56,029 nucleotides of DNA, taken from the IMG/VR virus record IMGVR_UViG_3300021559_000001, positions 1 through 56,029 of that record; one strand, 5' to 3'. Source of the stretch: a virus (Duplodnaviria; Caudoviricetes). Below are positions 465-52,877 of the stretch, piece by piece; position 1 is the stretch's first letter, and each line of letters opens with the position of its first letter. A program made the translations under genes and the position numbers. The notes under the pieces were generated by a model. That model saw only the letters and a list, made by a program, of their open reading frames with translations. It was not told the DNA's origin and made no database searches.

Positions 465-521
465 GATAAACCGCCGTCGTGCTGTCCAGCCGGTTCGGAA
501 TGCCAGTGCGCGGGAAATGTC

Positions 522-550
522 TTGACCCATTCGGGCCGGCGTAGTACAAC
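522..550 (+). promoter_or_regulatory. sigma70-type promoter for the tRNA
   Basis: TTGACC-17 bp-TACAAC, 6 nt upstream of the tRNA 5' end. Confidence 0.65.
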
Positions 551-556
551 TTCAAA

Positions 557-628
557 TGCGGCGTGGAGCAGAGGCAGCTCGGCAGGCTCATAACCTGTAG
601 GTCGCCGGTTCGAGTCCGGTCGCCGCAA
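557..628 (+). tRNA. tRNA-Met(CAT), initiator-like
   Basis: Acceptor TGCGGCG/CGCCGCA, D-arm GAGC..GCTC, anticodon loop CTCATAA, T-arm GCCGG-TTCGAGT-CCGGT; no encoded CCA. Confidence 0.9.
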
Positions 629-671
629 TTGGGAAAACTTGGATAAACCCTGCATAGCGAGGGACGGTCCA

Positions 672-736
672 TCCGGCGCGAGAGCGCGATTGTTGGTGGT
701 TGTGAAAAGGGTCCGGCGCGAGAGCGCGATTGTTGG
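672..736. repeat. 25-bp direct repeat x2 (40-bp period)
   Basis: tccggcgcgagagcgcgattgttgg at 672-696 and 712-736. Confidence 0.9.
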
Positions 737-764
737 CCCAGCCGTCCAGCCTCCCGAAAATATC

Positions 765-793
765 TTGACCGCTTCCCGGTCTTCCGTTACACT
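765..793 (+). promoter_or_regulatory. sigma70-type promoter
   Basis: TTGACC-17-TACACT upstream of ORF 806. Confidence 0.6.
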
Positions 794-805
794 GAATCTC
801 CCCGC

Positions 806-997
806 ATGAACGTTCACATTATGAACCAACCTACTGTGTACGAACTGTACGCCACACTGGCGCGCCTGGTTGACGGCGGCCATGGAGCGAGGCCGATCAT
901 TATCTGTCACGGTCGCAAGAAGTTGGATATCATCCAGGTTGCAACTCGCCCGAATAATCCCGACGCGCCGGCCGAAATCGACACGCGGGAGAGGTAA
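806..997 (+). CDS. Hypothetical cassette protein (63 aa)
   Basis: ATG ORF after a promoter, followed closely by ORF 1001. Confidence 0.55.
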   Translation: MNVHIMNQPTVYELYATLARLVDGGHGARPIIICHGRKKLDIIQVATRPNNPDAPAEIDTRER

Positions 998-1000
998 AAT

Positions 1001-1252
1001 ATGCCAGGGTTGCTGAAACCAAGTGCTTGCTGTCCATGTTGCGGAGTCCCGTTGATGGGGCTCGCCGATTTGACCACATCGACGACAGTGACACGCGAGT
1101 ATTTCCACGAAAAGCAAAACGGGGAGCTGCGGCGTTCCAAATGTACGAAACGCTTCACGGATTTGCGGGCCGCTGCCAACGAACGGAGCGCTCTGGAAGT
1201 CCACTGCGCACTGGCGAGCACAGGCCGTCGCGGACAGTATCACCCAAACTAA
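1001..1252 (+). CDS. Hypothetical Cys-cluster cassette protein (83 aa)
   Basis: GAGGT RBS; CCPCC; ends inside motif B. Confidence 0.6.
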   Translation: MPGLLKPSACCPCCGVPLMGLADLTTSTTVTREYFHEKQNGELRRSKCTKRFTDLRAAANERSALEVHCALASTGRRGQYHPN

Positions 1253-1260
1253 AGTCATTT

Positions 1261-1812
1261 TCATAGCCACGGATACTCCGTTCTTGGCCAGATATACCCT
1301 GTAAGCGCGCAGATCGTTTTCCCTGCTGGGTCTAGGGGTCCGCTTCCTGGGTTGGCGAAGTTCACGAAATACTGAAGCAATTGCCCGGAGAGCAGCGGAA
1401 TTCCTTGCCCCACAACATCGAAGGGCACGGTTAAGCTTCCGAGAGAGGTGCGGATATTGTCGAAAAATGGAATGTAGCGCCGGTCCTGCTGGACTCTCCA
1501 CACGATATCCCCGGATTCCTCGACGAAGCCGAACGAGTTCCAGACGTTCGTCATGCTGATTAAAAGGCCGTCGTAGCCCAGTGGAATGCGTTCGGAGAAT
1601 ACCAGATGGTCGGCGCCGTCGATGAGCCCCACTGAGGCGAGAGCTTTCCGCGGCTGCCAGCGCTTCGAGGTTTCGGGCGGCTGCAGAAATGGCGTGAGCC
1701 GGTTCGATTTCGGCCGGTTGGCCACGATCCTGCAGAACTCGCGTTGGGAGTGTTTCAGCCATTGAGAGGCTTGAATCAGATCAGTGTCACATGCTCCAAG
1801 GTTTCCTAGCAT
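1261..1812 (-). CDS. Putative minor structural beta-sandwich protein (183 aa)
   Basis: AAGGA RBS after motif A; lies in the structural operon; beta-strand pattern. Confidence 0.6.
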   Translation of the reverse strand: MLGNLGACDTDLIQASQWLKHSQREFCRIVANRPKSNRLTPFLQPPETSKRWQPRKALASVGLIDGADHLVFSERIPLGYDGLLISMTNVWNSFGFVEESGDIVWRVQQDRRYIPFFDNIRTSLGSLTVPFDVVGQGIPLLSGQLLQYFVNFANPGSGPLDPAGKTICALTGYIWPRTEYPWL

Positions 1813-1961
1813 AGATTGTTCCTTTGGGGTAAACCGCCGTCGTGCTGTCCGCCAAGGCTTCCGGGTGTCCTTCGCGCGGTGAAAGTACCAGTACAGAATG
1901 CCGCTTGAGAATGTTGGGAAACCCTTGTTTTCGATATTCTGACCGAGTATTCTATAGACCC

Positions 1962-2477
1962 ATGATCACCGCCGAACTGCAAAAAGAAATCGACAGTGCC
2001 CTTGAAACCACTCTGATGTTTGCGCCTAAGGGTGCAACCCTCAAAGAACTTGCCGCGCGAGCTTACAATTCCAATCGTCCGATATTCGATCAGGCTCAAC
2101 CCACCTGGATGCTGGATCGTATTGAGTGGATGATAGCGAGAAAGCGTAGGACGATAATTTCTGTTGATGCTGAGGAGCCCGCCCAATTCATGCTCCCTGG
2201 TTTTGAACGTATCCCCCGACGCCTCACAATGAAAAGCGGGAAACGTGTTGCTTTGCAGAACGCGATTCTTTCTCAACTGCGCGAGTATAGAGCCGCCCTG
2301 ATCGTGCAACTGACGAATTACCGGAACACGCTCGCTTCGAAAGATCCGGCCCAACATCCGAGAGTTCTCGCCCTCGACCGGCTGATTGAGTTGATGGAAG
2401 CCCACTCCGTCAAAGGTAAGACTGTCACAGTGGGCGACGTTATGGCCGCCGAGCGCAAAAAACAGGAGTGGCGCTAG
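1962..2477 (+). CDS. Cassette hypothetical protein (171 aa), paralog of 51509..52156
   Basis: Promoter TTGTTT-17-TATTCT (1925-1953); shares FERIP..L.NA.L..L..RA..L.RLI.LM.A with ORF 51509. Confidence 0.75.
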   Translation: MITAELQKEIDSALETTLMFAPKGATLKELAARAYNSNRPIFDQAQPTWMLDRIEWMIARKRRTIISVDAEEPAQFMLPGFERIPRRLTMKSGKRVALQNAILSQLREYRAALIVQLTNYRNTLASKDPAQHPRVLALDRLIELMEAHSVKGKTVTVGDVMAAERKKQEWR

Positions 2478-2536
2478 AGCCTCCGCGCAATGCCGACTCC
2501 GAAGCCGCGTCGATAGTCGAGCCCAAACTAAAAGCA

Positions 2537-3103
2537 TCACTTTGGCTCCAAAAAAAACATCGCCAGTTGACAGGACACATTATTATCCGACCCTGGCTGG
2601 GAATCGTTGGACACTTCACAATGGATCTGGCCCGGTTCCAATATTAGCCGCGGCTCATCTAGCAACTCGATCGGCGGGTTCAGCGTGTTGAACGTGGTCG
2701 TCACCGTCGAACCGCCCTTGATTCCTTGCCCTGCCTGCGGACGGTCGTAGATTCCCATCCCTGTGAACGATTCACGTATCATGACGCTGAACTTGGATTG
2801 CACGATCCCATCGTTGTTTACCGCGAAGGTCAAGCCCCACAGGTAGGAGCCGGGGCGTACCTGGAACTCGAGAAACTCCGTCTTGCCGGGTGGAATGTTC
2901 GTCGAGTTGGTATTGTTCGGGTTGGTGAATTGCTTCGGGCAGATGAAAACGCGCGGCCGGTAGCTGTCGGCCGCCAGTCTCAAATTCTGCATGGTCTCGT
3001 TTTGAAGGCAGTTCCAATACCAGTTCGATCCTTGGAGGGGGCGGGTTCCAAAGATTGATCCATAGCAGAAGCCGTCGAGTATTTGGGGGTAGTTTGTTAG
3101 CAT
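2537..3103 (-). CDS. Putative minor structural beta-sandwich protein (188 aa)
   Basis: AAGGAG RBS before ATG 3103 (MLTNYPQ), just downstream of motif A. Confidence 0.65.
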   Translation of the reverse strand: MLTNYPQILDGFCYGSIFGTRPLQGSNWYWNCLQNETMQNLRLAADSYRPRVFICPKQFTNPNNTNSTNIPPGKTEFLEFQVRPGSYLWGLTFAVNNDGIVQSKFSVMIRESFTGMGIYDRPQAGQGIKGGSTVTTTFNTLNPPIELLDEPRLILEPGQIHCEVSNDSQPGSDNNVSCQLAMFFLEPK

Positions 3104-3162
3104 GAGGCTCCTTGGAATCTTGGGGGTAAACCGCCGTCGTGCTGCGGAGGAAGGTTTCGGGT

Positions 3163-3190
3163 TTGACTTCGCGCGGTGGAAGTGTATAAT
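3163..3190 (+). promoter_or_regulatory. Strong sigma70-type promoter inside a cassette
   Basis: TTGACT-16-TATAAT. Confidence 0.65.
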
Positions 3191-3195
3191 CGTTT

Positions 3196-3283
3196 CGGCA
3201 GCTTGACGATCCGTGGTTCTGTTGGGCGCTTTATTTCGGGATACTCTCCGAGGCCCACGCTTGACCTTGCGCCGATCAAGCCG
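3196..3283 (+). ncRNA. Candidate small structured RNA
   Basis: Follows a consensus promoter; no ORF; ends pair (CGGCAGCTTGA/TCAAGCCG) with inner stems TGGGC/GCCCA and TCGG/CCGA. Confidence 0.4.
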
Positions 3284-3450
3284 TTCAAACTGGCCCCCGC
3301 GCAATGCCGATTCTGAGCCTGCGTCGATCCTTCAGCCCAAACTAAGGTCCTCATCCTGTAAGTACCTAGAACCAACGGCCTAGGTGAAGAAATAGAACCG
3401 AATTCGGACACGCTGGGACTGTTTCCCGCGTCTCTAAGGCAGGAGAATAA

Positions 3451-4014
3451 ATGTATGAAAACTTTCTGGATAGCAATGTTATACTTGGCGATGCTCTGGC
3501 CTGGTTGGCAGTTGAGATCGAGCGTTCTGACATCCACGTCCGCCATCAATGGCAAGCCGTTGTTTACTTCCACGTCCCCTGCGGGGTTTGTCAGGAAATG
3601 ACGCTGCACGATCAGTACGGAGAGGTCGAGGTTGGAATCGGCGATCTGTTTGAAATGAAGACGGGTCCCGCACAGAATCAATTCTCCGCTACGCTGGCTG
3701 TTGTCTGTCCCGAGCCGCTGACATTCAAGGGCCAACCGATTATCTGCGTACGTCTGAAACAAGGCGTCCTTGAGCATAACGGATCGAGATTTGAATACTC
3801 CGAAGAGCGGAACAATCTGCTTTTCAACCTCACTGGCGATCAGGTGGCGCGCCTGATCCGTGAGCATCGCCTGATGACCTTCGATATTCCCGCGCCGCAA
3901 TTGCCGCAGTTGCCGCAGAATATCTTGGACGAGAAAGTAATCAAGCCTCGCCGCGCTTCCGACAGCAAGAAACCCGCACGAAAGCATGAGCCAAACCAAA
4001 GCAGCCTGTTTTAG
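3451..4014 (+). CDS. Hypothetical cassette protein (187 aa, CxxC)
   Basis: AGGAG RBS, ATG start, antisense to the structural operon. Confidence 0.75.
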   Translation: MYENFLDSNVILGDALAWLAVEIERSDIHVRHQWQAVVYFHVPCGVCQEMTLHDQYGEVEVGIGDLFEMKTGPAQNQFSATLAVVCPEPLTFKGQPIICVRLKQGVLEHNGSRFEYSEERNNLLFNLTGDQVARLIREHRLMTFDIPAPQLPQLPQNILDEKVIKPRRASDSKKPARKHEPNQSSLF

Positions 4015-4073
4015 CCATACCAAACCATGGCAGAGGCTCTGGCGATTCGTTGTAGGGCTTCCTTTGGTGGCTG

Positions 4074-4202
4074 TCATAGCAGCAATCCCAGATCCTCGCA
4101 GAGTTCGCGGTATTCCCGATAGTTGTCGCCGCGGTCAGAACTTTTCCAGAATTCCTCTTCGCGAAACTCACGCATGATGCGCTGGGCCTGAGTTTCCGGC
4201 AT
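4074..4202 (-). CDS. Small hypothetical protein (42 aa)
   Basis: RBS (GGGGGA) supplied by the inner end of motif B at 4208. Confidence 0.45.
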   Translation of the reverse strand: MPETQAQRIMREFREEEFWKSSDRGDNYREYRELCEDLGLLL

Positions 4203-4269
4203 GAGTTCCCCCGCGCAATGCCGACTCCGAGCCTGCGTCGAATATTGAGCCCAAACCATAAAAACCCTG

Positions 4270-5166
4270 TTACCCGTTTACCGGCCCACTCACTGGAATT
4301 CGTTCCATCCCATCAAATATAATCTGCCACACATTCCCTTGAGCAACTGATTGCACCGCGTACAGATCGACTAGAATCTGACTCTGCCGCGGATAAAGGA
4401 TCCCTGGACAGGGGAACACTCCAGGCATCGGCGCCGGATCGGCCTGAAAGATCGGGGAAATCTGGTCGATGATGTAGGAATCCGGCACGGGCGCATTGGA
4501 AAGCGGATAGCCGCTCGAATCGTACAGCCAGTAATTGAAGACGCCCACGCGATCGGTGGTGACCAGCGGGACGCCTCCCGACAATGGCGGAGTGGCCGTT
4601 CCCGTGTCGAGTTGAATGATCCGATGGAGCTCGAAGTCGAGCCCGGCATTGATTCTTACGCTGAACCGCTGGTGATTCCCTCTCGTCCACGTTACAGGCC
4701 CCACGTTGAGCACGTACTGATAGCCGCGGGTGATGTAACCGGGACACGGATACGGCGCCTTCTCCCACGGAAACCGCTTGACCCCCTGGAATGCAAGGTA
4801 CGCAAGGAAGTCGGTTCCACCCGAGACCGCTACCGCTTTCGTAATCGTGGCGAGGTCGAAACGGATCTGGCTTTCCCGCGGGTAGTGTTTTTCAGGAACG
4901 ACGCTGATGTCCGCTTGTGGCCCTGCGATCGCCGCGGCCGGCAGCCAGGCGTAGGAGTTGCTGTAGTTGCGATAGGCGAAGAATTGCGCGATCGACGACG
5001 CGCCCGCGATCCGTCGAAGGATAAATTCCGCATCTCCATCGAGTTTGGTCGAGAGGGTATTGTTGACGCTGGTTCCATTCGTCAACCCGGTTCCGTCGAA
5101 CATGTAGATGTAAGGCACGTCATGGCAGCCTGGGGGGGTGATGTAGGGGGAGTATAGGTTGCTCAT
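4270..5166 (-). CDS. Putative two-domain jelly-roll-like minor capsid/vertex protein, paralog of 6744..7598
   Basis: Closely similar to ORF 6744 throughout (MSNLYSPY.TPPGCHD.PYIY.FDGTGLTNGT); internal two-repeat structure. Confidence 0.7.
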   Translation of the reverse strand: MSNLYSPYITPPGCHDVPYIYMFDGTGLTNGTSVNNTLSTKLDGDAEFILRRIAGASSIAQFFAYRNYSNSYAWLPAAAIAGPQADISVVPEKHYPRESQIRFDLATITKAVAVSGGTDFLAYLAFQGVKRFPWEKAPYPCPGYITRGYQYVLNVGPVTWTRGNHQRFSVRINAGLDFELHRIIQLDTGTATPPLSGGVPLVTTDRVGVFNYWLYDSSGYPLSNAPVPDSYIIDQISPIFQADPAPMPGVFPCPGILYPRQSQILVDLYAVQSVAQGNVWQIIFDGMERIPVSGPVNG

Positions 5167-5302
5167 GAGGATGCCTTTTGGGGTGAACCTCGGTCGTGCT
5201 GTCCGCCAAGGTTACGCGCGGCCGTGCCCCCGGTGGAAGTGATTTCCCCCGCGCAATGCCAGCCGCGAACCTGCGTCGATAATCGAGCCCAAACTAAAAA
5301 CG

Positions 5303-6508
5303 TCATGACGGTAGCAAGCACCTCTTAACGGGTCCCGGACTGCTGGGCGACAGAAGCATGACCAGTAGACTATGAGCGGTGGCCGGAGCATGGGCGGCAT
5401 CCTGCTCGGTCCAGGTGATACCGTCTGCTGATTTGAAGATGCGAATCTGATAGCTGATCGGCAGCCCCTCATGGAAAAACAGCGTTACGTAGAGCGGATT
5501 ACCAGCCCCGCCCGGCCCGACGTAGTAACCGGCATCGGTCGCGCCGTTTTGGGATAGCGCCGTGACAATCCCGAAAGCTCCGCTTGCGAGCTGCGCCGCC
5601 GATAGAGAGAAAATAAATTGGCTAGCGGCAGGCACGCCAGGCACGGGATTAGCTACCGCGTCATAAAACAAAGCCGGCGCGCTCCAGACTCCCGCGATTC
5701 GCGTGCTCTTGAACACGCTAATCACCGTCGGCGAGTTGTTCGTGTTCCAAAAGAGATTCAAATTGCCGGAATTGTCCACAACCAGGTACTCATCCTGATC
5801 GATATCGGTATTCGGGAGCGTGGTGTCGACCTGTTCAAATGTCCAAACCGGAGTAATCGAAGTGGCTGGATTTCCGAACCATACCCCAACCGGAAACGGC
5901 GATACTGTCGAGAAATACCCGAAAGCGATCTGACCGTTCCATAGCACTGGCGTCGAAATGAAACCACTCGGCGCACCCGCATCCGCCAGGATGACTTGAC
6001 CAAGATTCACCACGCCGCCCGTCGATAGAGTGCCGTGCATCATGATAGTAGGGCTCAGAATATTAGTTTGGTGCTGAAAGTAGATGACATGGATTAAATT
6101 GTTCTGATCTACGATTGCCTGAACGAAGCCCGGCTCATTGCTAACGTTGACCACACTTGGAGTGAAAACAGTTTGAGGTCCCCAGACGCCGCCGCTGAAG
6201 ACCCGGTAAAACAGGTTGCTTCCGCTGCCCGTCCCGCCCCCGAAGAACACGTAAACATCGCCGCTCGCAACCTGACAGCTAGCTCGAAATGTTCCATTGG
6301 CAGGCAACGTAAACCCGGCATCGGGAACTCCGTATGCATCCGTCACCATGCTGTAGTTGACCACATGGATATGGCCTGGAAAGATGGGGTCGACGTAGAC
6401 CAGGCGGATGAAACCGGCTGCTGGCTTCTGAAATGGCCCCATAAAGCCATTGCTGGCGTTATTCTGCAAGCTCAGGTTTGTAGGGTCGATCAGGTTTGGG
6501 CTGGGCAC
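5303..6508 (-). CDS. Beta-propeller (BNR/Asp-box-like) putative spike/receptor-binding protein
   Basis: Repeated blades (YRVFSGGVW, VDQNNLIHVIY, VDNSGNLNLFW) and the Asp-box KSADGITW. Confidence 0.6.
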   Translation of the reverse strand: MPSPNLIDPTNLSLQNNASNGFMGPFQKPAAGFIRLVYVDPIFPGHIHVVNYSMVTDAYGVPDAGFTLPANGTFRASCQVASGDVYVFFGGGTGSGSNLFYRVFSGGVWGPQTVFTPSVVNVSNEPGFVQAIVDQNNLIHVIYFQHQTNILSPTIMMHGTLSTGGVVNLGQVILADAGAPSGFISTPVLWNGQIAFGYFSTVSPFPVGVWFGNPATSITPVWTFEQVDTTLPNTDIDQDEYLVVDNSGNLNLFWNTNNSPTVISVFKSTRIAGVWSAPALFYDAVANPVPGVPAASQFIFSLSAAQLASGAFGIVTALSQNGATDAGYYVGPGGAGNPLYVTLFFHEGLPISYQIRIFKSADGITWTEQDAAHAPATAHSLLVMLLSPSSPGPVKRCLLPS

Positions 6509-6577
6509 GGTTCAGAGTACTCCTTGTGTTTGAATCCGTGCTGGCTGCGCTATGATGAATGGTGCGAGCGCGATCCT

Positions 6578-6736
6578 ATGCCCTGTCTGGAATACGTGCA
6601 AATATGCGTCTGCGGTCATACCTACAGCCTTCACACGCACACAGTATGCCCGGTTTGTTTTCGATGGCCCGTTAAAAGCGTGCCCCGCGCAACGGCAAGC
6701 ACGGAGCAGCCGTCGACAAATAAGCCCAAATACTAA
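6578..6736 (+). CDS. Small Cys/His cassette protein (52 aa)
   Basis: ATG directly after motif C'; CxCxH..CPVC; ends in motif B (RATASTE). Confidence 0.5.
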   Translation: MPCLEYVQICVCGHTYSLHTHTVCPVCFRWPVKSVPRATASTEQPSTNKPKY

Positions 6737-6743
6737 GCCCATT

Positions 6744-7598
6744 TCAGATCACCCCCTCATCCGGAACCCGCTCCACTCCATCAAACACAATCTGCCAGCA
6801 ATCCCCGTTCGGCGTGCTCTCGGTCGCGTAGAGGTCTACTACGATTTGAGAGAACCGCGGATAGAGCAAACCGGGAACCGGGAAAACTCCCGGCATGGGA
6901 CTAGGGTCCGCTTGGTCGATGGGGGAAATTTGATCGAGGACGTAGGAATCGGGAACCGGCGCGTTTGAAACCGGATACCCGTTGGCATCGTACAGCCAAT
7001 AATTGAAAACTCCGACCCGATTTGTCGGGACGTTGGTTCCGTTGCACTGAATGATTCTCATCAACTCGAAATCGAATCCTGCGTTGACGCGCACGCTGAA
7101 CCGCATGTACTGGGGTCGAGTCCAGGTGACCGCTGGCACGTTGAGCACGTACTGAAAGCTTCGCGGCGTGAAAGGGCAGGGACGAACCGGACTGCTCCAC
7201 GGGAAGCGCTTGACGCCCTGGAACGCGAGATACGACAGGAAATCCGTTCCACCCGAAATTGCCACGGCCTTTGCGATCCCGCCGAAGTCAAAGCGGATCT
7301 GGCTGTCTCGCGGATACACTTTCTCCGGCGCCACGCTGATATCGGCCTGCGGACCTGTTACGGAAGCCGCCGGAAGCCACACATACGAATTGCTGGCGTT
7401 GCGGTAGGTGAAGAATTGCGCGATCGAGGACGCGCCGGCGATTCGTCGAAGAATAAAATCCGCATCCCCATCGAGTTTCAGCGAGAGCGTGTTATTGACC
7501 GTGGTTCCGTTCGTGAGGCCCGTACCATCGAACACGTAGATATAGGGCGCGTCGTGACATCCAGGAGGGGTTAGGTAAGGCGAGTATAGATTACTCAT
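6744..7598 (-). CDS. Putative two-domain jelly-roll-like minor capsid/vertex protein (284 aa)
   Basis: GGAGG RBS before ATG 7598; paralog of 4270..5166. Confidence 0.7.
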   Translation of the reverse strand: MSNLYSPYLTPPGCHDAPYIYVFDGTGLTNGTTVNNTLSLKLDGDADFILRRIAGASSIAQFFTYRNASNSYVWLPAASVTGPQADISVAPEKVYPRDSQIRFDFGGIAKAVAISGGTDFLSYLAFQGVKRFPWSSPVRPCPFTPRSFQYVLNVPAVTWTRPQYMRFSVRVNAGFDFELMRIIQCNGTNVPTNRVGVFNYWLYDANGYPVSNAPVPDSYVLDQISPIDQADPSPMPGVFPVPGLLYPRFSQIVVDLYATESTPNGDCWQIVFDGVERVPDEGVI

Positions 7599-7631
7599 GA
7601 AACCTCCGAGTATCGCCACGGCGCGCCACAT

Positions 7632-8090
7632 TCAATATCCCCTCCGGTAGCGGTTCGGACCCCGGAAAACCACTTGCACGTTTTGATTGACCGCGGCCAC
7701 GTTGATGATGTCAAAGTGGATCGCTTGCCGCTGCCCAGGTCCTCTTCGATAGCTTACGGCCGGAAATTGCGGGAAGGGATTAGCCCACGTTCCCGGCGTG
7801 TTGTTCGAGTACAGAAAGCCGTCGCTGATGTAGTTGCCGGCGTCGTCCTGGACACGATAGAGGAAGCCCGGTCCTGAGACAGCGAAGATGAACGCGCGCC
7901 AGATAAATTCGTCCGCATCGCTGAGCACGATTACCTGATTGTTGAGCACCTGGTTCCCTGTCATCACCTGGAATCCGCCAGAGGGGGGCCAGATCATAGC
8001 GGCGTCCACGTCTTCGCAGCCTTGGGGGGAGGCTGGGTTGAACCCGTTCAAGTAAGGTGGAGCTGCCGGGTTGAAGATTTCTTGGCTCAT
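7632..8090 (-). CDS. Putative single jelly-roll-like structural protein (152 aa)
   Basis: Shares GNQ.L..DAD.F.W..F...QD..GNY.S with ORF 8574 and the repeats of 4270/6744. Confidence 0.65.
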   Translation of the reverse strand: MSQEIFNPAAPPYLNGFNPASPQGCEDVDAAMIWPPSGGFQVMTGNQVLNNQVIVLSDADEFIWRAFIFAVSGPGFLYRVQDDAGNYISDGFLYSNNTPGTWANPFPQFPAVSYRRGPGQRQAIHFDIINVAAVNQNVQVVFRGPNRYRRGY

Positions 8091-8164
8091 AGGATGAGTG
8101 GGGGTAAACCTCGGTCGTGCTGTCCAGACGATTCGGAAATACCCGAGCCCTGATACAATGTGCA

Positions 8165-8393
8165 TGTTAGCGTCGGCGTGGTGGCAAGCACGCTCGGAAG
8201 TGTGAGAACGACGGGGTTACTACAGGGGTTCTGATATGCGCGTGATGAGTGACAGCAGGGGGAAGCCCCCGGGATCACATGCACCAAGTCACGGCTGTTC
8301 GGTCCGGTATACTGCGAAGTTAAGCCCTGCTTGACGGTCGATCTGCGCTCACTGCTGAGGGTCGAAAGCCGGTTCGAATCCGGCACGCTAACA
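8165..8393 (+). ncRNA. tRNA-like RNA with ~160-nt expanded anticodon arm
   Basis: Acceptor-like helix TGTTAGCGT/ACGCTAACA, D-arm GCGTG-GTGGCAAG-CACGC, perfect T-arm GCCGG-TTCGAAT-CCGGC; extended -10 TGaTACAAT at 8151-8159. Confidence 0.7.
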
Positions 8394-8573
8394 ACGGCTG
8401 AACTATGACAAGAAAACAGCGCAAGCAATGAAATGCAAACCGGCGCTACCGTGTGCGGCGCAAACAAAAGCGGCAGAAGATGCGAAATGCCCAAAGGCCT
8501 ACCGGGAGATAATTCCCCCGCGCAATGCCGATTACTAACCTGCGCCGATAGTCGAGCCCAAACTAAAAGCATT

Positions 8574-8996
8574 CTACCTAATCCCCATCCGAGTGCTCAT
8601 CGCCTCAGGTCCACAAACAGGAGGTGGAACCACAAATCTCTTGATCCCGACGAATCCAAGCTGAATAATATTCTGAACTCCGCTCTGCTCCTGCAGGTCC
8701 GCTGTGATCTGAGAGCCAGGCGGGAACACGCGGGGCTTGCCCATGAAAGTGTAAGGTAGCGGCCCTTGTGCGTTGATGTTGGCCGCCAGAATCGGCGAAC
8801 TCGAGAAATAGTTACCGCCTGAGTCCCGGAACTGCACCGTGAACAGGATCGAAGTGAAGGCGTTCAGGATGAGCCCCAGCAAGAGAAAGTCAGAATCGGT
8901 GTCGGTGCGTACGCCGTCGCCTGTCAGCAGTTGATTGCCTACCATTGTCACGTCGTAGTTGTAGGTGAAGCTTAAGTCTCCGAAGTATCCGTTCAT
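8574..8996 (-). CDS. Putative single jelly-roll-like structural protein (140 aa)
   Basis: GAGG RBS; DTDSDFLL..VQFRDSGGNYFSS pattern homologous to ORF 7632. Confidence 0.65.
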   Translation of the reverse strand: MNGYFGDLSFTYNYDVTMVGNQLLTGDGVRTDTDSDFLLLGLILNAFTSILFTVQFRDSGGNYFSSSPILAANINAQGPLPYTFMGKPRVFPPGSQITADLQEQSGVQNIIQLGFVGIKRFVVPPPVCGPEAMSTRMGIR

Positions 8997-9112
8997 AGCT
9001 GGGCCTCTTGAATCTTTGGTGATAAACCGCCGTTGTACTCTCGTCTCGCTTCGGAGATACCCGAGCGCTGGGGCCGGTTGCGCGGGCCATGCTGGACCGC
9101 TACAGTGAGCGC

Positions 9113-9499: not shown

Positions 9500-9579
9500 C
9501 CCGCAGGCTCCCCCCGCGCGAAGTCCAGCCCAGAGCGTAATCGTTAGTACGACCCAAACAAAAAGCATTTCCATAAAAG

Positions 9580-14647: not shown

Positions 14648-14648
14648 A

Positions 14649-45666: not shown

Positions 45667-45722
45667 AGAATGAGGGTTTGAATTCGGCTAGCCGCTCCCG
45701 TTGGGGTGCGAGGTCCGCGTAA

Positions 45723-46085
45723 ATGGCCTGGCTCCCCAATCCAATCGCCTGCGATATGTGCGGAGCTGTCAAGCAACCCTCTAACAACTGGTACTACGCA
45801 GCGTTCGTACCACAGACGGAAGACGATGCGCACCTGACCATCTGGCCGTGGGACTACCCGGCCGAGGATCGCTCGAAACCCTACAAGCACATCTGCGGGC
45901 AAGTCTGCGCTATTCGGCTGTTGAACGAATTTATGAATGGTTTGAATCCCCCGGAGCAGGTCCCAGCCGCGAAACCCGATCCTCCTGGACCGCACTCCGA
46001 TTGGGAGCGAGTCAAAAAATCGGTTCGGGAATCGCTAGCCGATGCCGCGCTGAAATCGACACTCGCCGCGCTCCCCACAGAATAA
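45723..46085 (+). CDS. Zn-finger hypothetical protein (CDMCG..HICG..C)
   Basis: RBS from motif C; bracketed by motifs C and A. Confidence 0.7.
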   Translation: MAWLPNPIACDMCGAVKQPSNNWYYAAFVPQTEDDAHLTIWPWDYPAEDRSKPYKHICGQVCAIRLLNEFMNGLNPPEQVPAAKPDPPGPHSDWERVKKSVRESLADAALKSTLAALPTE

Positions 46086-46127
46086 AACCTTGGCGGAAAG
46101 CACGACGGCGGTTTACCCCAAAAACCC

Positions 46128-46942: not shown

Positions 46943-48593
46943 TCAATCCTTTTTGTTTGAATTCGGCTGCGCTGCGGGGTTCGGGTTGGAGGTCCGCGTA
47001 CATGCTTTCCGTTTCAGCATCGCGGCCAGCCGGTCGCGCTCGGCGATCAGCTTAAACAGATCCTTTTCGAGCTTCGTGATTCGGTCCAGGAACTTGGCGA
47101 TAGAGTCGCGCCGGTCGCAAATCTTCTTGCGCACCGCCATCAGACGCCGGTAGTCTGGATCGCCGCGGCGCGCGGCATGGTACGCCTGCGACCGGGATAT
47201 GCACCGCTGGCGATATTCGGGATTCGCTTTGTACAACTGTTGCTTGTAGGTCACTTCAAATCTTGACGTTACTTGTCACTTGGATCGTTTCTCCCATGAG
47301 CACCAATTTGCCATCGGGAGAGCCTTGTAGGAATGTTCGATTGTAGCTGGGGTCGATCAGGGTTAATGCTCCGGCGTCAGCCGCTACGAAGGCCTCTTGT
47401 ACGGCGATGGCGGTTGTGGTCTGGCCGTCTGCGCTCTTCTTTGTGGCTGTGACCATGAGGAGTCGTTCACCATCTTTGATGAGGGCTCCGAATTTTAAGC
47501 TGCTGAAGGTTGGTAGGTCCACGTTACTTGCTCCTTTTTTGTTTGGGCTTGAGGCTTGGAACGCTCTGTTTCTTGCCTTTGCGCGGTGGATTTTTGCCCG
47601 GTCTGCCCGAAACGATAACAGTTGAAGCGGCTCGGCCTGGTCTGTCAAATGCTAAATCGTGGGCCGTTTGTGCGAGTCCCAAAGCCTCAACAGCCGCTAC
47701 AAGGCTGGTGTTCACCTCGTTGATTACGGCGCGCATCCCGTCATGGCAGTAACGGGCGTTCTCGAATGCTTTACCGATACCAGCGGAAACGATCTGAACC
47801 CAAAGTTCCGCGCGGTCCAGTTGCGTTCTCGCGAGTTCCTGCGCTGGCGTGTATTCGCGTCTGCGTCTGCGTCGTCTCACTTTACCTCCATGAAATCGTC
47901 GTCCTGATCTTCAGATTCATCGAGCGTCGGACAATCGAGGGAGGTGGCCGTCTTCCGGGTTTCCATCGCAGCATGTGAAATCTCGAGAAATCGGTTCGAC
48001 GGCTGTTAGCGCCTTGGCACCCGGCAGTTTCAACGCGATCAGTGGCCGGCGCTGATTCTCGCGGATGGCCTTCCTTGCCGCCTCTTCAGTGCAAGGGATA
48101 ATCCGATAGATTGATCCGGCTCCGACAAGCACGCTGACAGCTTCGATAGCCCCGCGTTGCACAATCGTTCCGGCCGGTAGTGTGGTGTTTCCGATCCAGG
48201 TCGATTCGGTCAAGGTCTCTTCGGCTTCGGGAATCTCCGGTTGGTCGATGCGAAACAGAACCGCGGCGCCGTAGGCTTCGGTCGTCACGTAACCGACGTG
48301 GGACTGATGCCCCATTACTTCGACGCGCGCCCAGCCTTTGAATTCCGCCTGGTTTGTTTCGTTCATAGTTCCGTCCCAACGTGTTTCTTGAGCCACGCCT
48401 TTTCATCGTCGGACTGAGCGCTTTCTGGCCAGCGGATAGCCTGGGCTGCGGCAAAGTGTGGCGCGTCGAATCGGCGCGGGCATTGGCTCCTGGCGTCTTC
48501 TGGGCTTGTCGCCTCGACCTCTTTCAAGCACGAATACATTGGAACGCCGTTTTCTCTTCCCCGATCATTCGTAAAAATCCGGTACTTGCTCAT
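46943..48593 (-). CDS. Hypothetical ORFs 46943-47254, 47256-~47648, 47524-47880, 47917-48366 (WARVEVMGH), 48363-48593
   Basis: Closely packed minus-strand ORFs; some boundaries uncertain. Confidence 0.5.
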
Positions 48594-48816
48594 TTTGCAA
48601 TTCCTCCGCGCAATGTCATCTCCGAACGGCGCCGACAGATGAACGGCGGTTTATCCCTAAAATCCAATCCATTGCGCGGGGGAAGTCCCGAAATTTCCAG
48701 CCTGGACGGAGCAAATCGAAGAGAAAACAAAGTTTGCACGGTCCCCTGGAGCCTCGTTCCAGAAGTTGCTCTAGCCTGACCTTGTGATTGACCTTCGGGA
48801 CTTGCCTCGCGCAATG

Positions 48817-49920
48817 TCATCGTAATTGCTCAATACGTAGCGCCGTGCCGGTGTTTGTTCCCGGCGGCGTGATCGGAACTGCAACCCACTTCGGACTCTT
48901 GGATACACTCCCATCGTCCGGGATTCCCACCATGACGCGCGGGCCGTCCGCGAATAAGAGAGTATAGAGTTCCAGCCCTGCGCAGGACGGGGGTATCGCC
49001 AGGTTCATGCTAAGCATTTGAACCCGCATGAGCGCCTCGGAAAGATTTACCGCGTCTACGGGTCCGCCGCTGGAAGAGATTCTGAGCGCCCCAAGGCGTT
49101 TTGCGGTTGGGGTGGCAAGGTCGTCTACGCAGACGGAGCGTTGAGTCAAGAGAACGGATGGCGCTTTCACCTGGGGGAAGTCGATGCGCGTCTGGGCAAC
49201 CATCGCCAGTAACAGGCAGAGTGCGACAGCCGACGAGCGGATCACGCTTCTAAAGCCTTGCAGACTAGCTCCCTTCAAATCCATAAATCCTTCAGTACGT
49301 ATAATCCACTAACAGAATATCTCCTGGTTGTGGAATCCCCATTGTCCCGGAGCCCGGTGGAACGACTGGAATCGGCACGAAGACTATTTTGGTCGCGTTC
49401 CAATTCGAGGTATCGAGGTTGTAATCGCAGCATCCAGGCGGGATGCAGGTGGCCGGAAGTACAACCGGGGGAGAGCATCGATATTGCCGTACGCCGTTTC
49501 TCCATAACTTGATCGACGCCCACGGCGCCGGTTGGTGGGCGATCTGGAATATCGTGTTTATGCCATCAAGGACTCCGGCCGGTCTCTCTTCGGACATGGT
49601 GCCGTGGGGTACTTGGGCTTGGACGGTTAGATTGACGACTAGAATGGCGATGCCGATGAAGGCAAAAAGGGCGGCAATGTTATCTGGTCTTTTCATGGTT
49701 TGGGTTCACCTGTCGGCGACGGGTTCGGAGTGGCCGTTGCGCGGGGAATTAGCGCTACGGCTTTCGGCTTCAAATCCGGGTGACTCCATCTTTCCTGATA
49801 TCCGTGACCGCGAAAGGGATGCAATTTCCAGTCGGTTTCAGTGTGCATGGTTTGACGCTGACATGCAAAACAATTTGGCTGAGGGGTCGCCAGAATCAGA
49901 CTGCGTTCGGCGGCCGTCAT
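48817..49920 (-). CDS. ORFs 48817-49284 and 49292-49696 (signal-peptide-like N-termini) and 49693-49920
   Basis: Hydrophobic N-terminal segments; GVLDGINTIF..KLWRNG..DY beta-domain. Confidence 0.55.
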
Positions 49921-51002
49921 GAAGTAGCATCCTCTAACCGGCTTCGGAAGTAACCCATCAGATCGGCGATGAGCTTTTTATTCCTGCCCGTGAGTTGATA
50001 AAGGCCTTGAGCGTCCCGTTTCAGATCCAGCGAAGGGTCAAAATTATTTTCATTGATGATCTGCCAACGGGTGAGGTAGCCGCGATTCTGTTTCCTTCCA
50101 TGCCAGAAATGCGTGAGAAGGCCCGGAACGTAGCCGATTTTCGGCTTGAGGATCTCGGCACGCTCCCCCCAAATCTTCAGTGAATCCTTGAACGGCTGCG
50201 GGGATTGGCCGTGCGCCGAATCCAGAATATTGCCGATGAAACCGCGCGCCATGTGGTGATCGTTGGCGCCGCACACTGACCAGTCGATCAGCCCGCCGAG
50301 GGTATCGAGCGCGTAACGGGTCGCGGCCCAGGCATAACCCGCATGGCCGGGATGCAATCTCATCCGCTGGCCGCGGCCGTATGAATACGGGTTGCAGCCT
50401 TCGGCCCGGATAATGCGCTGATATTCCGCCAGCGTCCCATAGCGCCCGCTCTCGATAAACTGGTGCATCATGCCCGGCATCTGCTCGCCGCCGTCGTCGA
50501 ATCCCACGATTTCATGGTCGATGTTCAAATCCTGGCACATGCTCCACATCTGAACCACGTGGTAGTGCTGGAGTTGGTGCATCGTTTCTTGCGCCCAATC
50601 GGGCCTGGAAAATTGTACGTCGGCGTCGATCCAGGCGAAATACTTCGCCTCTGGATACAACCGGATAGCGTTTGCGATCAGCAAATTGAGGAGATTTTCT
50701 TTTTGCCAGAGTTCCTGCATGTGCTGACGCAACTGCAGGTGGTGTGGGTTGTTCGGGTCGGTCACTTCGAAATGCCGGCCGCCGAATGCAATCTCGCCCA
50801 CGTGGAGAATCGCGGAGCTCATATCGACTCGTCTCTCGAATCCGCGGTAGAGCTCGTATCGGCTTCTGAATCGCTGGGGGTTGATGATGGCGGTACAGAC
50901 GTGGAGCTTATCAGGGAATGGCCAGATGCCTGGTTTTGCATGGGAGGGGTGGTCTATGAATTGTTCTGGGTTAGGGGAGGGTATGTAGCGGGGGTTGAGC
51001 AC
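49917..51002 (-). CDS. Putative GT-A fold glycosyltransferase
   Basis: WQKENLLN..YFAWIDADV (DXD)..HFWHG; GTG start after motif C RBS. Confidence 0.65.
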   Translation of the reverse strand: MLNPRYIPSPNPEQFIDHPSHAKPGIWPFPDKLHVCTAIINPQRFRSRYELYRGFERRVDMSSAILHVGEIAFGGRHFEVTDPNNPHHLQLRQHMQELWQKENLLNLLIANAIRLYPEAKYFAWIDADVQFSRPDWAQETMHQLQHYHVVQMWSMCQDLNIDHEIVGFDDGGEQMPGMMHQFIESGRYGTLAEYQRIIRAEGCNPYSYGRGQRMRLHPGHAGYAWAATRYALDTLGGLIDWSVCGANDHHMARGFIGNILDSAHGQSPQPFKDSLKIWGERAEILKPKIGYVPGLLTHFWHGRKQNRGYLTRWQIINENNFDPSLDLKRDAQGLYQLTGRNKKLIADLMGYFRSRLEDATS

Positions 51003-51003
51003 T

Positions 51004-51261
51004 TCAGTCCTTTGTGTTTGAATTCCGCTGGGATGCGGGGTTAGGGTCAGAGGTCCGCTTATCGGATGCCAGCTTATTTCCGAGATCTTTAATCCGTTGG
51101 GAGACATCAGGATACTTTGTCAGACTTGCGGCAGCGGCTCCGAGGGCCAGTAGCAGCGTCTCGTATTCTTCCTGTGAGAACTGGATCTGTACGCCTACGA
51201 GTACACGGCGGCTTGCCGAACTCGGAGCGTGAGAACTCTTCGATCGAGGTTTATCACTCAT
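51004..51261 (-). CDS. Hypothetical protein ending in motif C
   Basis: ATG overlapping the upstream gene end; C-terminus RTSDPNPASQRNSNTKD. Confidence 0.5.
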   Translation of the reverse strand: MSDKPRSKSSHAPSSASRRVLVGVQIQFSQEEYETLLLALGAAAASLTKYPDVSQRIKDLGNKLASDKRTSDPNPASQRNSNTKD

Positions 51262-51373
51262 CTTTCGGCTTCCCCCACCTGGCCCTTGCCGCCTTCCTTG
51301 CGGACTCTGAGCGTGCTTTTGGTTTCATCTTGGCCGCTCTGGCTTTTCCACCGAGCTGAGCTAATTCTTTCAC
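51254..51373 (-). CDS. Small basic protein (39 aa), paralog of 44843
   Basis: LAQLGGKARAAKMKPKARSESARKAARARWG. Confidence 0.65.
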   Translation of the reverse strand: MKELAQLGGKARAAKMKPKARSESARKAARARWGKPKDE

Positions 51374-51405
51374 GGAAGCTACTTTCTTCTTGGGAATGAT
51401 GATTC

Positions 51406-51434
51406 AGTATGATGCGTGCTGGTACGCATGTCAA
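51406..51434 (-). promoter_or_regulatory. sigma70 promoter with a palindromic operator in its spacer
   Basis: TTGACA-17-CATACT; ATGCGT-N6-ACGCAT between the boxes. Confidence 0.65.
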
Positions 51435-51508
51435 GCCGGAGTTTTGCTAGGGGTAAACCTCCGTCGTAGATTCTGCCCGGTTCGTAGTACCGGGAGCGCG
51501 GGGGATGT

Positions 51509-52156
51509 CTATGCCTGCTTGTCCTTGTCTTGTCGGCGGGCCGTGCTACGGAGTTCCATCGCCTTCTTTACCGTGATGCCGGGGTGCATCTTGTCGTAGG
51601 CTTGCATGAGTTGAATGAGTCTGTTTAGTTGGGGTAGTTCCATCGATTGTTCACCTTTGATGAAGGCGCGGCGTTTTTTCAGATCGGCCAGAGTAGCGTT
51701 CGGCAGTTCAATTTCACGCCCGCGGCTGCTGCGTGTTCTTGGCTCCAAAATTAGGTAATACGGAATTCGTTCAAATTGTTCAGAAAATGGCAGTCGGCTC
51801 TGGTTGGGGTGTCCAAATCGGGGCCGTCCATGCTTAAGGGGATTATGGGTGTTGATGCTGGCGGTTGACTTGGAGAACATTTCCCCTTGGGCCGGTTCCG
51901 GTTTCTCTTGGGGCGGCTGCGTCTCTCGCTCTTTGGTCTTCGAATCCGAAGGTTGCGCCATTTCCCGTCGTCGGATCTCCTCTGAGCAAAGAGACTCGAT
52001 TTTGTCATCAGCTAATTTCCGTTGGTACTGGGCTATGAATGCGGCGTAGTGGTGGCGTGCCCAGCGGACCAAATCAACCGGGCTGGCCGTGGGGTTTTCG
52101 TCTATCGCCTGAGCGATGACGCTGCGCAATTTCGCTTCCAAATCGCTGGTGCTCAT
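51509..52156 (-). CDS. Cassette hypothetical protein, paralog of 1962..2477
   Basis: GAGGT RBS; FERIP..NATL..LNRLIQLMQA..ITV..AM. Confidence 0.75.
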   Translation of the reverse strand: MSTSDLEAKLRSVIAQAIDENPTASPVDLVRWARHHYAAFIAQYQRKLADDKIESLCSEEIRRREMAQPSDSKTKERETQPPQEKPEPAQGEMFSKSTASINTHNPLKHGRPRFGHPNQSRLPFSEQFERIPYYLILEPRTRSSRGREIELPNATLADLKKRRAFIKGEQSMELPQLNRLIQLMQAYDKMHPGITVKKAMELRSTARRQDKDKQA

Positions 52157-52355
52157 CCGTTACCTCAGATTGCTATCCGCATCTCGATCAAGCTGCTAGG
52201 GCGGTCTTTGCACCCTTGTCTGGTAAATTACCAGACGGAAGGCTGATTATGCAGCAATTCTGGCCGGAATGCTATGGTTTTCTCGTAACATCGGTACTTC
52301 CACCGCGGTCGGGTATTTCCTGAGCCTGCGATCAGAGTACGACGGCGGTTTACCC

Positions 52356-52877
52356 CTAATCTGAAAAAAAGTACCAAAGAGCCCATACACCTAATCCTAC
52401 TAATCCAATCGTTGCCCAGTCGATAGATCCTGATTGTGAAGGATCGGAATAGATCGAGTTGGTTGGATCGAGCGCTGGATCTAGGCTCCCGGAGTCTGCG
52501 GCTGGGGAAGCCTGATGAGGGGGGCTGAGATTGTTGAGCGGGGTGTTTGGATCGATTCCTACGTCTGAGGCCACGCGGGCCGCGTAAGTGAGAGGGGTGT
52601 TCGAGTCGGCGCTTGGCGCGTATCCAGCGTAGACTCCCGGCTTGCCGGCGAAGAATTCATTCAGTGTGAGCCCCCGGCTGATGTTCAGATTGATCTGCTG
52701 ATAGAGCGCGTTCCATCCGTCCTGAATGGTCGGAAACTTGGCATAGCCTGAGACGATCGGGTTCGATCCCCAGGAGCGGAGGTTGCCTGGATTGTTGTTT
52801 CGGTACGACAAGGCGTTGGGGTTTCCGCCTGATTCGACATTGGCGATGGATTGGGCTATTTGATCGGTTAGGCTCAT
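52356..52877 (-). CDS. Lysozyme-like virion muralytic protein with a C-terminal TM
   Basis: VESGG..RNNNPGNLR..AKFPT..GW.AL..YAP..D.N..YA..VA. Confidence 0.7.
   Translation of the reverse strand: MSLTDQIAQSIANVESGGNPNALSYRNNNPGNLRSWGSNPIVSGYAKFPTIQDGWNALYQQINLNISRGLTLNEFFAGKPGVYAGYAPSADSNTPLTYAARVASDVGIDPNTPLNNLSPPHQASPAADSGSLDPALDPTNSIYSDPSQSGSIDWATIGLVGLGVWALWYFFSD

Follow-up and report, generated by a model that had tools for sequence, protein, structure and literature searches.

What function can a sequence of about 50 bp have when it recurs some 50 times in one phage genome, in both orientations and mostly at gene boundaries? The question is raised by the virus record IMGVR_UViG_3300021559_000001, a complete genome record of 56,029 bp that was analysed over its whole length (hereafter the window). 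Its first and last 29 bases are identical, which points to a circularly assembled sequence. The repeated elements have a CGCG end, which we call the head, and an opposite end, the tail. We favour, with a probability of roughly one half, the view that they are cis-regulatory sites placed at the boundaries of expression units, that they are read as double-stranded DNA and that they double as short-homology crossover points. The analysis shows the family itself, its orientation rule, its conservation in place, its lack of folding, the movement of slot genes and the breakpoints at element edges; reading of the sites by a protein or polymerase, their control of transcription and exchange by homologous rather than site-specific recombination are inferred. 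The available excerpts of the literature on phage intergenic repeats, cassette mosaicism and boundary sequences contain no description of the element family.

The family is large and well delimited. In the window, iterative nhmmer searches seeded with three subtypes detected 40 copies that do not overlap. After the models were rebuilt with four related genomes, the count rose to 46 at E<1e-3 (27 minus, 19 plus) and to 50 at a relaxed threshold of E<0.05 (28 minus, 22 plus), and two extra weak B-like copies (9513-9562 and 22411-22460) were detected by a combined model only. The initial annotation of the sequence had counted 45-50 copies, about 24 per strand, which is close to these figures. A repeat search groups the copies into families D1, D2, D4, D5, D8, D9 and D12-D18. 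Nine-mers and 10-mers typical of the family occur 9-14 times where a first-order Markov model expects 0.2-1.2, and nearly all these occurrences are within elements. The elements measure 46-55 bp and belong to subtypes A, B and C, which can be aligned once oriented, as had been proposed. The A/C hybrid that had also been described exists in three copies (named D in Table 1; at 6526, 20223 and 22193), and one further copy, at 48605, joins a B-type head to an A-type tail. Read from the CGCG end, the anatomy is bipartite, with strong conservation in a head block and in a tail block some 30 bp away and a weaker middle. Subtype C has an extra conserved stretch before the head that resembles (by eye) the block preceding the tail of A, which suggests that the subtypes are mosaics of a few blocks.

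The position of the copies relative to genes is far from random. Called genes contain more than half the length of only 13 of the 46, whereas random positions would give 36.4 +/- 2.7 (none of 5000 placements was as low), and neighbouring copies switch orientation 31 times in 45 pairs, against 22.3 +/- 3.3 when labels are shuffled (46 of 10,000 shuffles reach 31). The enrichment at gene boundaries and the alternation of minus and plus copies noted by the initial annotation are thus both present. The tail is the end that lies close to genes. In the window alone, 29 of the 46 tails and 12 of the 46 heads are within 25 nt of a gene end; when all contigs with copies are pooled (see below), a gene end is found within 30 nt of the tail in 104 of the 177 copies and of the head in 27. 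Genes were called with a codon model trained on the long open reading frames (ORFs) of the window, which is poor for small genes at 38-52 kb; this is why 73 of the 177 copies count as remote from any gene end.

The two orientations correspond to the two ends of genes. Sense copies have their tail a median of 14 nt before a start codon (n=61), with the ribosome-binding site in the gap, outside the element, and inverted copies have their tail a median of 11 nt from a stop codon (n=43). It had been suggested that either end of the element can supply the ribosome-binding site of the next gene; this does not hold, and supply by a head is plausible in a single case (4202, by eye). Subtypes are specialised accordingly across all contigs: counts before starts and after stops are 41 and 8 for A, 10 and 31 for B, and 3 and 0 for the A/C hybrid. 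A typical unit consists of a sense element, a gene or operon, and an inverted element, and neighbouring units are separated by slots of 1-600 nt with a head on either side. The CGCG ends had been described as facing the cargo, which is right insofar as heads face slots of small reverse-strand genes, but it is the tails, not the heads, that hug gene ends.

Adjacent copies obey a strict rule. All nine pairs separated by at most 60 nt are inverted, six head-to-head (1-13 nt) and three tail-to-tail (13-36 nt), and none of the 62 pairs of same-strand neighbours is closer than 150 nt. The long structural operon at 9.6-18.1 kb has an A copy in front (minus strand, 18172) and a B-like copy behind (9513). 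The earlier statement that this region is free of copies is correct for strong copies, of which there are none inside; one weak copy is present at 15206-15260. The latter, of subtype A, is 79% identical to the copy at 5176-5238 over a stretch of 63 nt. A factor that marks the beginnings and ends of units would fit both the spacing of 11-14 nt from start and stop codons and the absence of elements inside operons.

A coding role for the elements was also considered, since minus-strand ORFs traverse many copies, and these ORFs were treated as shadows. Indels between copies are not multiples of three, and the B copies of the window contain in-frame stops (read by eye). In addition, the slot gene at 806-997 (w806), when read in its plus frame, shows change at third positions (28 of 63 and 32 of 64), which confirms that frame and argues against coding on the shadow strand.

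The same subtypes, obeying the same rule, are found in 18 sources, i.e., the window and 17 soil phage contigs, with a total of 177 copies in 272 kb. A complete relative of 53.7 kb (G001) was found with an 18-mer of subtype A, a complete genome of 56.4 kb (G006) and a contig of 21.6 kb (G005) via the DnaB protein, and 13 metagenome contigs with at least two copies each via a B-type pattern. A 14-mer of the head proved too unspecific, and another genome, G002, was reached through one B-like copy and turned out not to be a relative. When one exact B-type pattern was searched in the genomes of Bacteria and Archaea (one per species, 185,579 in total), it matched nine stretches, none of which was recognised by the family models. 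Six of these matches (L160, L163, L164 and L166-L168), from Gallionella, Sulfuritalea, Rhodocyclaceae, Accumulibacter and an unclassified Pseudomonadota metagenome-assembled genome, have near-identical flanks resembling, by eye, a conserved coding region. As none of the nine is a true copy, the family appears, within the reach of a single pattern, to be confined to this phage clade.

The comparison with relatives suggests that copies are maintained in place. The window and G001 are collinear, and most of their shared proteins are only 25-60% identical. Two segments have the appearance of recent exchange (DnaB, 35736-37181, 94% identical in protein; 31906-32130, 90% in nucleotides); no element marks the right end of the first, the DnaB segment. 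In 27 cases, copies from different genomes adjoin orthologous genes, and the subtype is the same in 25 of them. Copies in such orthologous places are 69% identical, to be compared with 67% between genomes and 70% within genomes for unrelated copies of the same subtype. Copies thus seem to be held to the family consensus and to their places despite the erasure of nucleotide similarity around them. This conservation of sequence and place over deep divergence argues for a function at each place and not for recent selfish spread.

It bears directly on the idea that the elements are selfish miniature repeats, akin to miniature inverted-repeat transposable elements (MITEs) or repetitive extragenic palindromic (REP) sequences, that have spread between genes without function for the phage. 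Their high number, intergenic location, presence in one case inside an ORF (15206-15260) and alternating orientation, as in bacterial interspersed mosaic elements (BIMEs), are what such repeats would produce. We nevertheless regard this as extremely unlikely, because orthologous places are kept beside proteins of 25-60% identity with about 70% identity to the family, partner copies have no matching terminal repeats, there is no palindromic unit, the junctions read by eye have no target duplications and none of the nine bacterial pattern matches is a true copy. Nor did we recognise an enzyme that could mobilise them: we found no integrase, resolvase, transposase, reverse transcriptase, Cas, RAYT or HUH family in 95 ORFs searched against Pfam (E<=1e-3) and PHROGs (E<=1e-4; best 25 of 27 families), in line with the initial annotation, which had recognised no recombinase, transposase, reverse transcriptase or Cas gene.

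Are the elements read as DNA or as RNA? Single copies fold like their shuffles (z between -0.84 and +1.0), as do five composite pairs and one single C copy (z between -1.22 and +0.97, with head-to-head composites between -1.22 and -0.07), and the consensus folding energy is about 0 on both strands in alignments of 65 A, 66 B and 37 C copies. Since neither copies, pairs nor subtype alignments show structure, we dropped the readings as hairpin terminator, attC-like site or riboswitch-like element. The only hit to pass in Rfam 15 was the tRNA-Met gene; two chance-level matches are outside elements. A match to a host repeat or known RNA, which would have told against the initial proposal of exchange sites, was therefore found neither in Rfam nor in the nine bacterial stretches. 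Partner copies flanking one unit are no more alike than random ones (p=0.50 and 0.98), which led us to discard 5'-3' pairing and matched terminal repeats as well. The same duplex is used in both orientations and gives different RNAs, it has no fold, its blocks are bipartite and its polarity relative to genes is fixed; this is best explained by a site read on DNA.

We accordingly give a low probability to a signal acting in RNA. In that case, sense copies would serve as a shared 5' leader without structure and inverted copies as a 3' trailer; either an RNA-binding protein or a ribonuclease would recognise them, or the two would pair, and the stability, processing or translation of the mRNA would be set in this way. 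The tail about 14 nt before starts, with the ribosome-binding site in between, fits such a signal, as do the C-rich, unstructured sense strands of B and C and the high conservation of the leader that follows B before the slot gene at 3451-4014 (w3451). There is also a precedent for repeats at translation starts in the start-associated sequences of cluster K mycobacteriophages, as presented in the available excerpts (PMC3203893). Yet the sense and inverted copies are different RNAs, and their homology would be unexplained unless they pair, whereas copies flanking one unit are no more complementary than random ones (identity 0.564 versus 0.568, p=0.50) and composite pairs fold no better than shuffles. 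A terminal B between convergent genes would, moreover, fall in two opposite transcripts.

If the elements are read as duplex, they might still be bound by a protein whose task is the condensation, looping or packaging of phage DNA and which has no direct role in expression. Such a protein could use some 50 unfolded duplex sites that are dispersed over the genome, have conserved bipartite blocks and occur in every relative examined. This strikes us as highly unlikely, because it leaves unexplained the 11-14 nt distances to codons, the start and stop subtypes, the fixed polarity relative to genes and the 8-kb gap in the structural operon.

The slots between heads reveal a second aspect of the elements. 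The gene w806 adjoins an A head in three genomes and lies there in three different backbone intervals. A module made of B, a 107-nt leader and w3451 occupies three different intervals in four genomes. Its leader is far better conserved than the proteins and near-invariant in three genomes (L129:12212-12325 and L156:18262-18380, minus strand, in the relatives); RNAalifold predicts 27 pairs in it, one with a compensatory change, and its role may be that of a leader RNA or of a region bound by protein. The gap between the heads 5' of w3451 and of the neighbouring gene is only about 12 nt in one relative, too short for a separate upstream promoter, so that expression would have to start within the elements. 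Homologues of the slot gene at 1962-2477 (w1962) are found in three kinds of slot, and the similarity between the window and two contigs starts right after the A head and ends at the B tail.

Near-identical contigs show where gene content changes. In pairs of such contigs, 7 of 16 internal homology ends are within 4 nt of an element head, when about 0.1 would be expected (by arithmetic, given 177 copies in 272 kb). These 16 breakpoints are ends of BLAST segments, which can run through a repeat by family likeness (one B copy did), and one slot, that of contigs L174 and L184, was inspected base by base. At all seven head junctions, identity is 45-62%, i.e., at the level of unrelated sequence, over 60 nt on the side of the slot, against 84-100% over 100 nt on the side of the gene and 72-98% in the element itself. 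L174 and L184, which are 98-99% identical, are alike up to the A head of the slot and again from the B tail on. Between these points, L184 has two tandem units made of a small ORF and a B copy, and L174 has one different ORF followed by a B identical to the first B of L184. All three small ORFs (L184:5288-5750, L174:1795-2142) read through B in one frame and stop in its tail (by eye), and the window genes 1962-2477 and 9089-9499 have stop codons just before a B copy in that frame (by eye).

Junctions are therefore variable, being at heads, at tails or inside elements, which fits crossovers in any conserved block, and blocks of 10-20 bp that recur about 50 times could act as short-homology crossover points. 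A precedent is provided by the PeSL (promoter-early stem-loop) repeats of T4-type phages, which are described in the accessible parts of the original reports as promoter-terminator cassettes whose recombination makes indels, as demonstrated by experiment (PMC2839356, PMC4122927). Given this precedent, the lack of a fixed junction point and the lack of a detected recombinase, exchange through short conserved blocks is the simplest explanation.

The initial annotation had proposed recombination or exchange sites, or else binding sites for a protein that loops or insulates the cargo or condenses the genome. The part concerning exchange is partly supported: gene content changes at element edges and differences in cargo start at sites, along with the orientation bias and boundary enrichment that it anticipated, but no dedicated enzyme or fixed cleavage point was found. 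A dedicated system, in which an unrecognised recombinase of the phage or host inserts, excises and inverts units of a small ORF and B between heads, in the manner of integrons or pdif modules, would account for the number and content of tandem units that differ between contigs 98-99% identical, for the concentration of homology ends at heads, for slot genes that sit in different slots of different genomes, for the B/A and A/C hybrids, for the strict inversion of adjacent copies and for empty units with tails 13-17 nt apart. We think it unlikely all the same: no candidate enzyme was recognised in the 95 ORFs, the sites lack a folded or dyad core, and junctions are scattered (at the A head on the left and the B tail on the right in L174/L184) with element identity ranging from 0.72 to 0.98. 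Partner copies are no more alike than random pairs, and 9 of the 16 homology ends are away from elements. A purely recombinational role is further opposed by the stability of places beside orthologues of 25-60% identity, by the start and stop subtypes and by the absence of elements in the structural operon. The broader idea of a phage-borne, integron-like platform for gene capture, with an enzyme that would cut unfolded 50-bp sites at heads and tails and with sites that would also punctuate transcription, is equally doubtful.

We thus return to sites that mark unit boundaries on the duplex. A single sequence-specific factor would read them, be it an RNA polymerase holoenzyme, an activator or some DNA-binding protein able to start or block transcription (for instance as a polar roadblock), and the tail would always point into the unit. 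The sense copy, mostly A, C or the A/C hybrid, about 14 nt before the first start codon of the unit, would be part of its expression signal. The inverted copy, mostly B, about 11 nt after the last stop codon, would close the unit or shield it from convergent transcription. Short-homology crossovers between copies would allow small genes and tandem units of a small ORF and B to be gained, lost and moved between heads.

Several observations weigh against this explanation. In positions 1-20000, neither sigma-70-type promoters (9 versus 8.6 +/- 3.2 in shuffles) nor hairpin terminators (20 versus 21.4 expected) are enriched, and matches to either never coincide with elements in the sense direction. 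A terminator-like hairpin with a T-run is already present 3' of the structural operon (9580-9603, minus strand), between the stop of gene 9660-10385 and the B-like copy 9513-9562. No sigma factor, RNA polymerase, repressor-like or helix-turn-helix protein was recognised among the 95 ORFs (Pfam; best 25 of 27 families in PHROGs). As to exchange, in a hand tally of the left half of the window against G001, 5 of 13 variable intervals had no element (8 had), with an element in 1 of 5 conserved intervals. As promoters, the elements would drive antisense transcription of neighbouring genes from inverted B copies, and as terminators they would silence the gene behind a sense copy located 14 nt before a start. 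Any model with a single function is weakest at the inverted B copies. For one function to serve both orientations, the factor would have to be polar or dependent on context, which is speculation.

Two observations on promoters can be added. The best sigma-70-like match in positions 1-20000 (3163-3190, plus strand, 11 of 12 positions) has its first hexamer in the head end of the A copy 3123-3177 (minus) and points to the B copy and gene 3451-4014. A resemblance of the middle and tail blocks to sites of extracytoplasmic function (ECF) sigma factors, seen by eye, was set aside: its spacing suits B and C but does not suit A, and a sigma gene was not recognised.

The coordinates of copies, slots and genes are given in Table 1. 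The minus strand carries most genes, and a block at 26.1-31.0 kb is on the plus strand. Besides the tabulated genes, recognisable products include a DNA methylase domain and a GroES-like protein, and there are PHROG matches to tape measure and endolysin. Terminase, portal and capsid families were not recognised among the 95 ORFs at the thresholds given above (best 25 of 27 families in PHROGs). With so few recognisable families, the genome appears to be tailed-phage-like and of a poorly known group. Unexplained proteins of 699, 521 and 335 aa had no match among solved structures, a search for relatives of the 506-aa protein found none, and the region 33444-37063 had no match in the phage record collection. 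Conserved products without an assigned role are encoded, for example, at 26068-27633, 24927-25670 and 37085-38092. The single public run that contains the genome is a DNA soil metagenome and probably the source of the contig. Its contigs show three joints, each with a short side of 21-35 letters and too weak to use, one of which skips from 6581 to 6684, i.e., between two slot heads.

Some loci deserve mention. The only tRNA gene (Met, anticodon CAT, 557-628) is in a head-to-head slot. On its 3' side, a GC-rich motif of about 25 nt has two direct copies (672-696 and 712-736), and a sigma-70-like site (765-793) is found just 5' of the gene 806-997. The slot 8153-8517, between paralogous genes, is gene-free over 363 nt and has a stretch resembling a tRNA T-arm at about 8365-8395 (by eye); ARAGORN and Rfam found nothing in it. 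The same slot contains a w1962-type gene in L175 and L192. Neighbouring genes are paralogous in pairs (4270-5166 with 6744-7631, and 7632-8090 with 8574-8996), with 73-77% nucleotide identity over 200-300 nt (4357-5064 and 6825-7496; repeat families D6 and D11), and appear to be a duplicated module with elements framing each copy. Downstream (3') of the replication genes, a gene-poor and partly AT-rich kilobase (38093-39066), which holds a tail-to-tail A pair 17 nt apart, may be an origin or control region. Short GCN-rich direct repeats at 21153-21401 (repeat family D3), inside ORF 20663-21853, probably encode an alanine-rich stretch; an Rfam match there is below threshold, with composition as the probable cause.

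Table 1. Element copies, slot contents and recognised genes of the window. Copies are from nhmmer models at E<1e-3 unless the row says otherwise; signs in brackets give the strand of the gene.
Feature	Position	Strand	Context
A	464-514	-	tail abuts start of gene running off the left end of the window
weak B-like	1206-1251	+	tail 10 nt from stop of 1261-1812(-); D2, combined model, E 0.0016
A	1826-1880	-	13 nt before start of 1261-1812(-)
B	2482-2530	+	between convergent stops of 1962-2477(+) and 2537-3103(-)
A	3123-3177	-	19 nt before start of 2537-3103(-)
B	3296-3344	+	in sense, 5' of conserved leader and gene 3451-4014(+)
B	4210-4258	+	tail 11 nt from stop of 4270-5166(-)
A	5180-5234	-	13 nt before start of 4270-5166(-); head-to-head with 5248-5296, 13 nt apart
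B	5248-5296	+	tail 6 nt from stop of 5303-6508(-)
A/C hybrid (D)	6526-6576	-	17 nt before start of 5303-6508(-); D15
B	6684-6733	+	tail 10 nt from stop of 6744-7631(-)
A	8101-8153	-	10 nt before start of 7632-8090(-)
B	8517-8565	+	tail 8 nt from stop of 8574-8996(-)
A	9019-9071	-	22 nt before start of 8574-8996(-)
weak B-like	9513-9562	+	just 3' of stop of 9089-9499(+); D1, combined model only
weak A	15206-15260	-	within uninterrupted 506-aa ORF 14649-16169(-); D9, E 0.0053
A	18172-18225	-	12 nt before start of 17587-18159(-), head of long structural operon
A/C hybrid (D)	20223-20273	-	13 nt before start of 19739-20209(-)
B	20285-20334	+	head-to-head with 20223-20273, 11 nt
A/C hybrid (D)	22193-22243	-	10 nt before start of 21499-22182(-)
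weak B-like	22411-22460	+	tail 5 nt from stop of 22466-23410(-); D17, combined model only
A	24687-24741	-	
A	28254-28305	+	4 nt before start of 28310-28615(+)
A	28733-28787	-	inverted, 3' of 28310-28615(+)
B	30536-30585	+	in sense, between 29838-30530(+) and 30600-30950(+)
C	31143-31189	-	
C	31867-31914	+	
B	32361-32409	+	
B	35034-35082	+	
weak partial B	35096-35130	+	D19, E 0.02
C	35156-35202	-	
A	38606-38659	+	tail-to-tail (17 nt) with 38677-38729, an empty unit; E 0.0082
A	38677-38729	-	
B	39275-39323	-	in sense, 23 nt before start of 39066-39251(-)
C	40228-40274	-	
B	40628-40676	+	
C	40921-40968	-	
B	41105-41153	+	tail-to-tail (13 nt) with 41167-41214, an empty unit
C	41167-41214	-	
C	41703-41750	-	D14
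B	42376-42424	+	
C	43122-43168	-	18 nt before start of 42513-43103(-)
B, diverged tail	43456-43504	+	
C	43609-43655	-	
C	45675-45721	-	head 1 nt from start of 45723-46085(+)
A	46065-46119	+	overlaps end of 45723-46085(+); tail 8 nt from stop of next minus-strand gene
C	46954-47000	-	before start of gene ending at 46128
hybrid, B-type head and A-type tail	48605-48657	+	
B	49696-49745	-	in sense; tail touches start of 49292-49696(-)
C	51015-51061	-	before start of 49917-51002(-)
A	51450-51502	-	head 6 nt from stop of 51509-52141(-)
A	52302-52356	+	tail overlaps stop of 52356-52877(-)
slot content between heads	557-1252	+	tRNA-Met 557-628, gene w806 806-997, ORF 1055-1252
slot gene w1962	1962-2477	+	conserved upstream region 1881-1961
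slot gene w3451	3451-4014	+	leader 3345-3450, 107 nt, conserved
slot gene	9089-9499	+	between A(-) 9019 and B-like(+) 9513
ice-binding-like beta-helix protein	11819-12799		
DEAD-type helicase	33444-35141		
DnaB-type helicase	35738-37063		
DUF968/HNH-like ORF	38707-39069		

Phage genomes are mosaics, and the sequences at which modules are exchanged are rarely visible; the punctuation in this clade of uncultured soil phages is unusually explicit. If one factor reads the sites, they offer a handle on expression in a phage without recognisable transcription proteins. If they are crossover points, they show clearly, in nature and beyond the T4-type phages, how regulatory repeats can drive the exchange of gene modules, and accessory genes could be found by a simple rule, namely to search the space between two heads. 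A dedicated enzyme, should there be one, would define a new recombination system.

How do the elements compare with known repeats? REP and BIME sequences are extragenic, come in several subtypes, alternate in orientation and have variable linkers, all of which is also true of the elements; unlike REP sequences, which are palindromic and host-chromosomal, the elements have no palindrome and no true copy among the nine bacterial stretches. As for MITEs, the partners are unmatched and the places are conserved over deep divergence. Measured against the features that define attC sites, they share with integron cassettes the tandem, co-oriented units of an ORF and a repeat, in varying number (one slot, L174/L184), but there is no integrase in the 95 ORFs (best 25 of 27 families in PHROGs), no imperfect-palindrome fold, and sites also flank core genes throughout the genome. 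The elements are not attC sites, REP/BIME units or MITEs.

Phage-borne repeats are closer in character, as far as the available excerpts of their descriptions go. The stoperators of cluster A mycobacteriophages are 13 bp long, have a single orientation relative to transcription, which matters for their function, and are bound by a known immunity repressor (PMC9283540). Like them, the elements are more than 20 asymmetric sites in promoter regions and short intergenic spaces, with an orientation tied to transcription; unlike them, they are about 50 bp long, have two orientations (61 sense, 43 inverted) and come without a recognised repressor or integrase. The start-associated sequences (SAS) of cluster K mycobacteriophages are also 13 bp long, contain the ribosome-binding site, lie 3-7 bp from the start codon and have almost only one orientation. 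In the extended SAS (ESAS), a spacer of 4-13 bp separates imperfectly inverted repeats, for which RNA hairpins are not supported (PMC3203893). Both sets, like the elements, are phage-specific asymmetric repeats, apparently absent from hosts, tied to starts, kept with gene families and unexplained in function, and the head-to-head pairs, 1-13 nt apart and without hairpin, recall the ESAS. The differences from SAS are that the ribosome-binding site is outside the element and that a quarter of the copies are inverted after stops.

The PeSL repeats remain the most instructive parallel, again as far as excerpts of the reports extend (PMC2839356, PMC4122927). They are directly repeated and consist of a sigma-70-type promoter and a terminator hairpin, neither of which is a feature of our elements, which are bipartite, 46-55 bp long, of three subtypes, in both orientations, genome-wide and in an unrelated phage clade. 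Both are short intergenic repeats 5' of small genes of unknown function, and in both, close relatives differ by insertion, deletion or replacement of genes at the repeats, as if an expression signal were also a crossover point. Recombination of this kind is seen here in the head-proximal homology ends (7 of 16) and in the variation of unit number between L174 and L184, by a mechanism that would be homologous.

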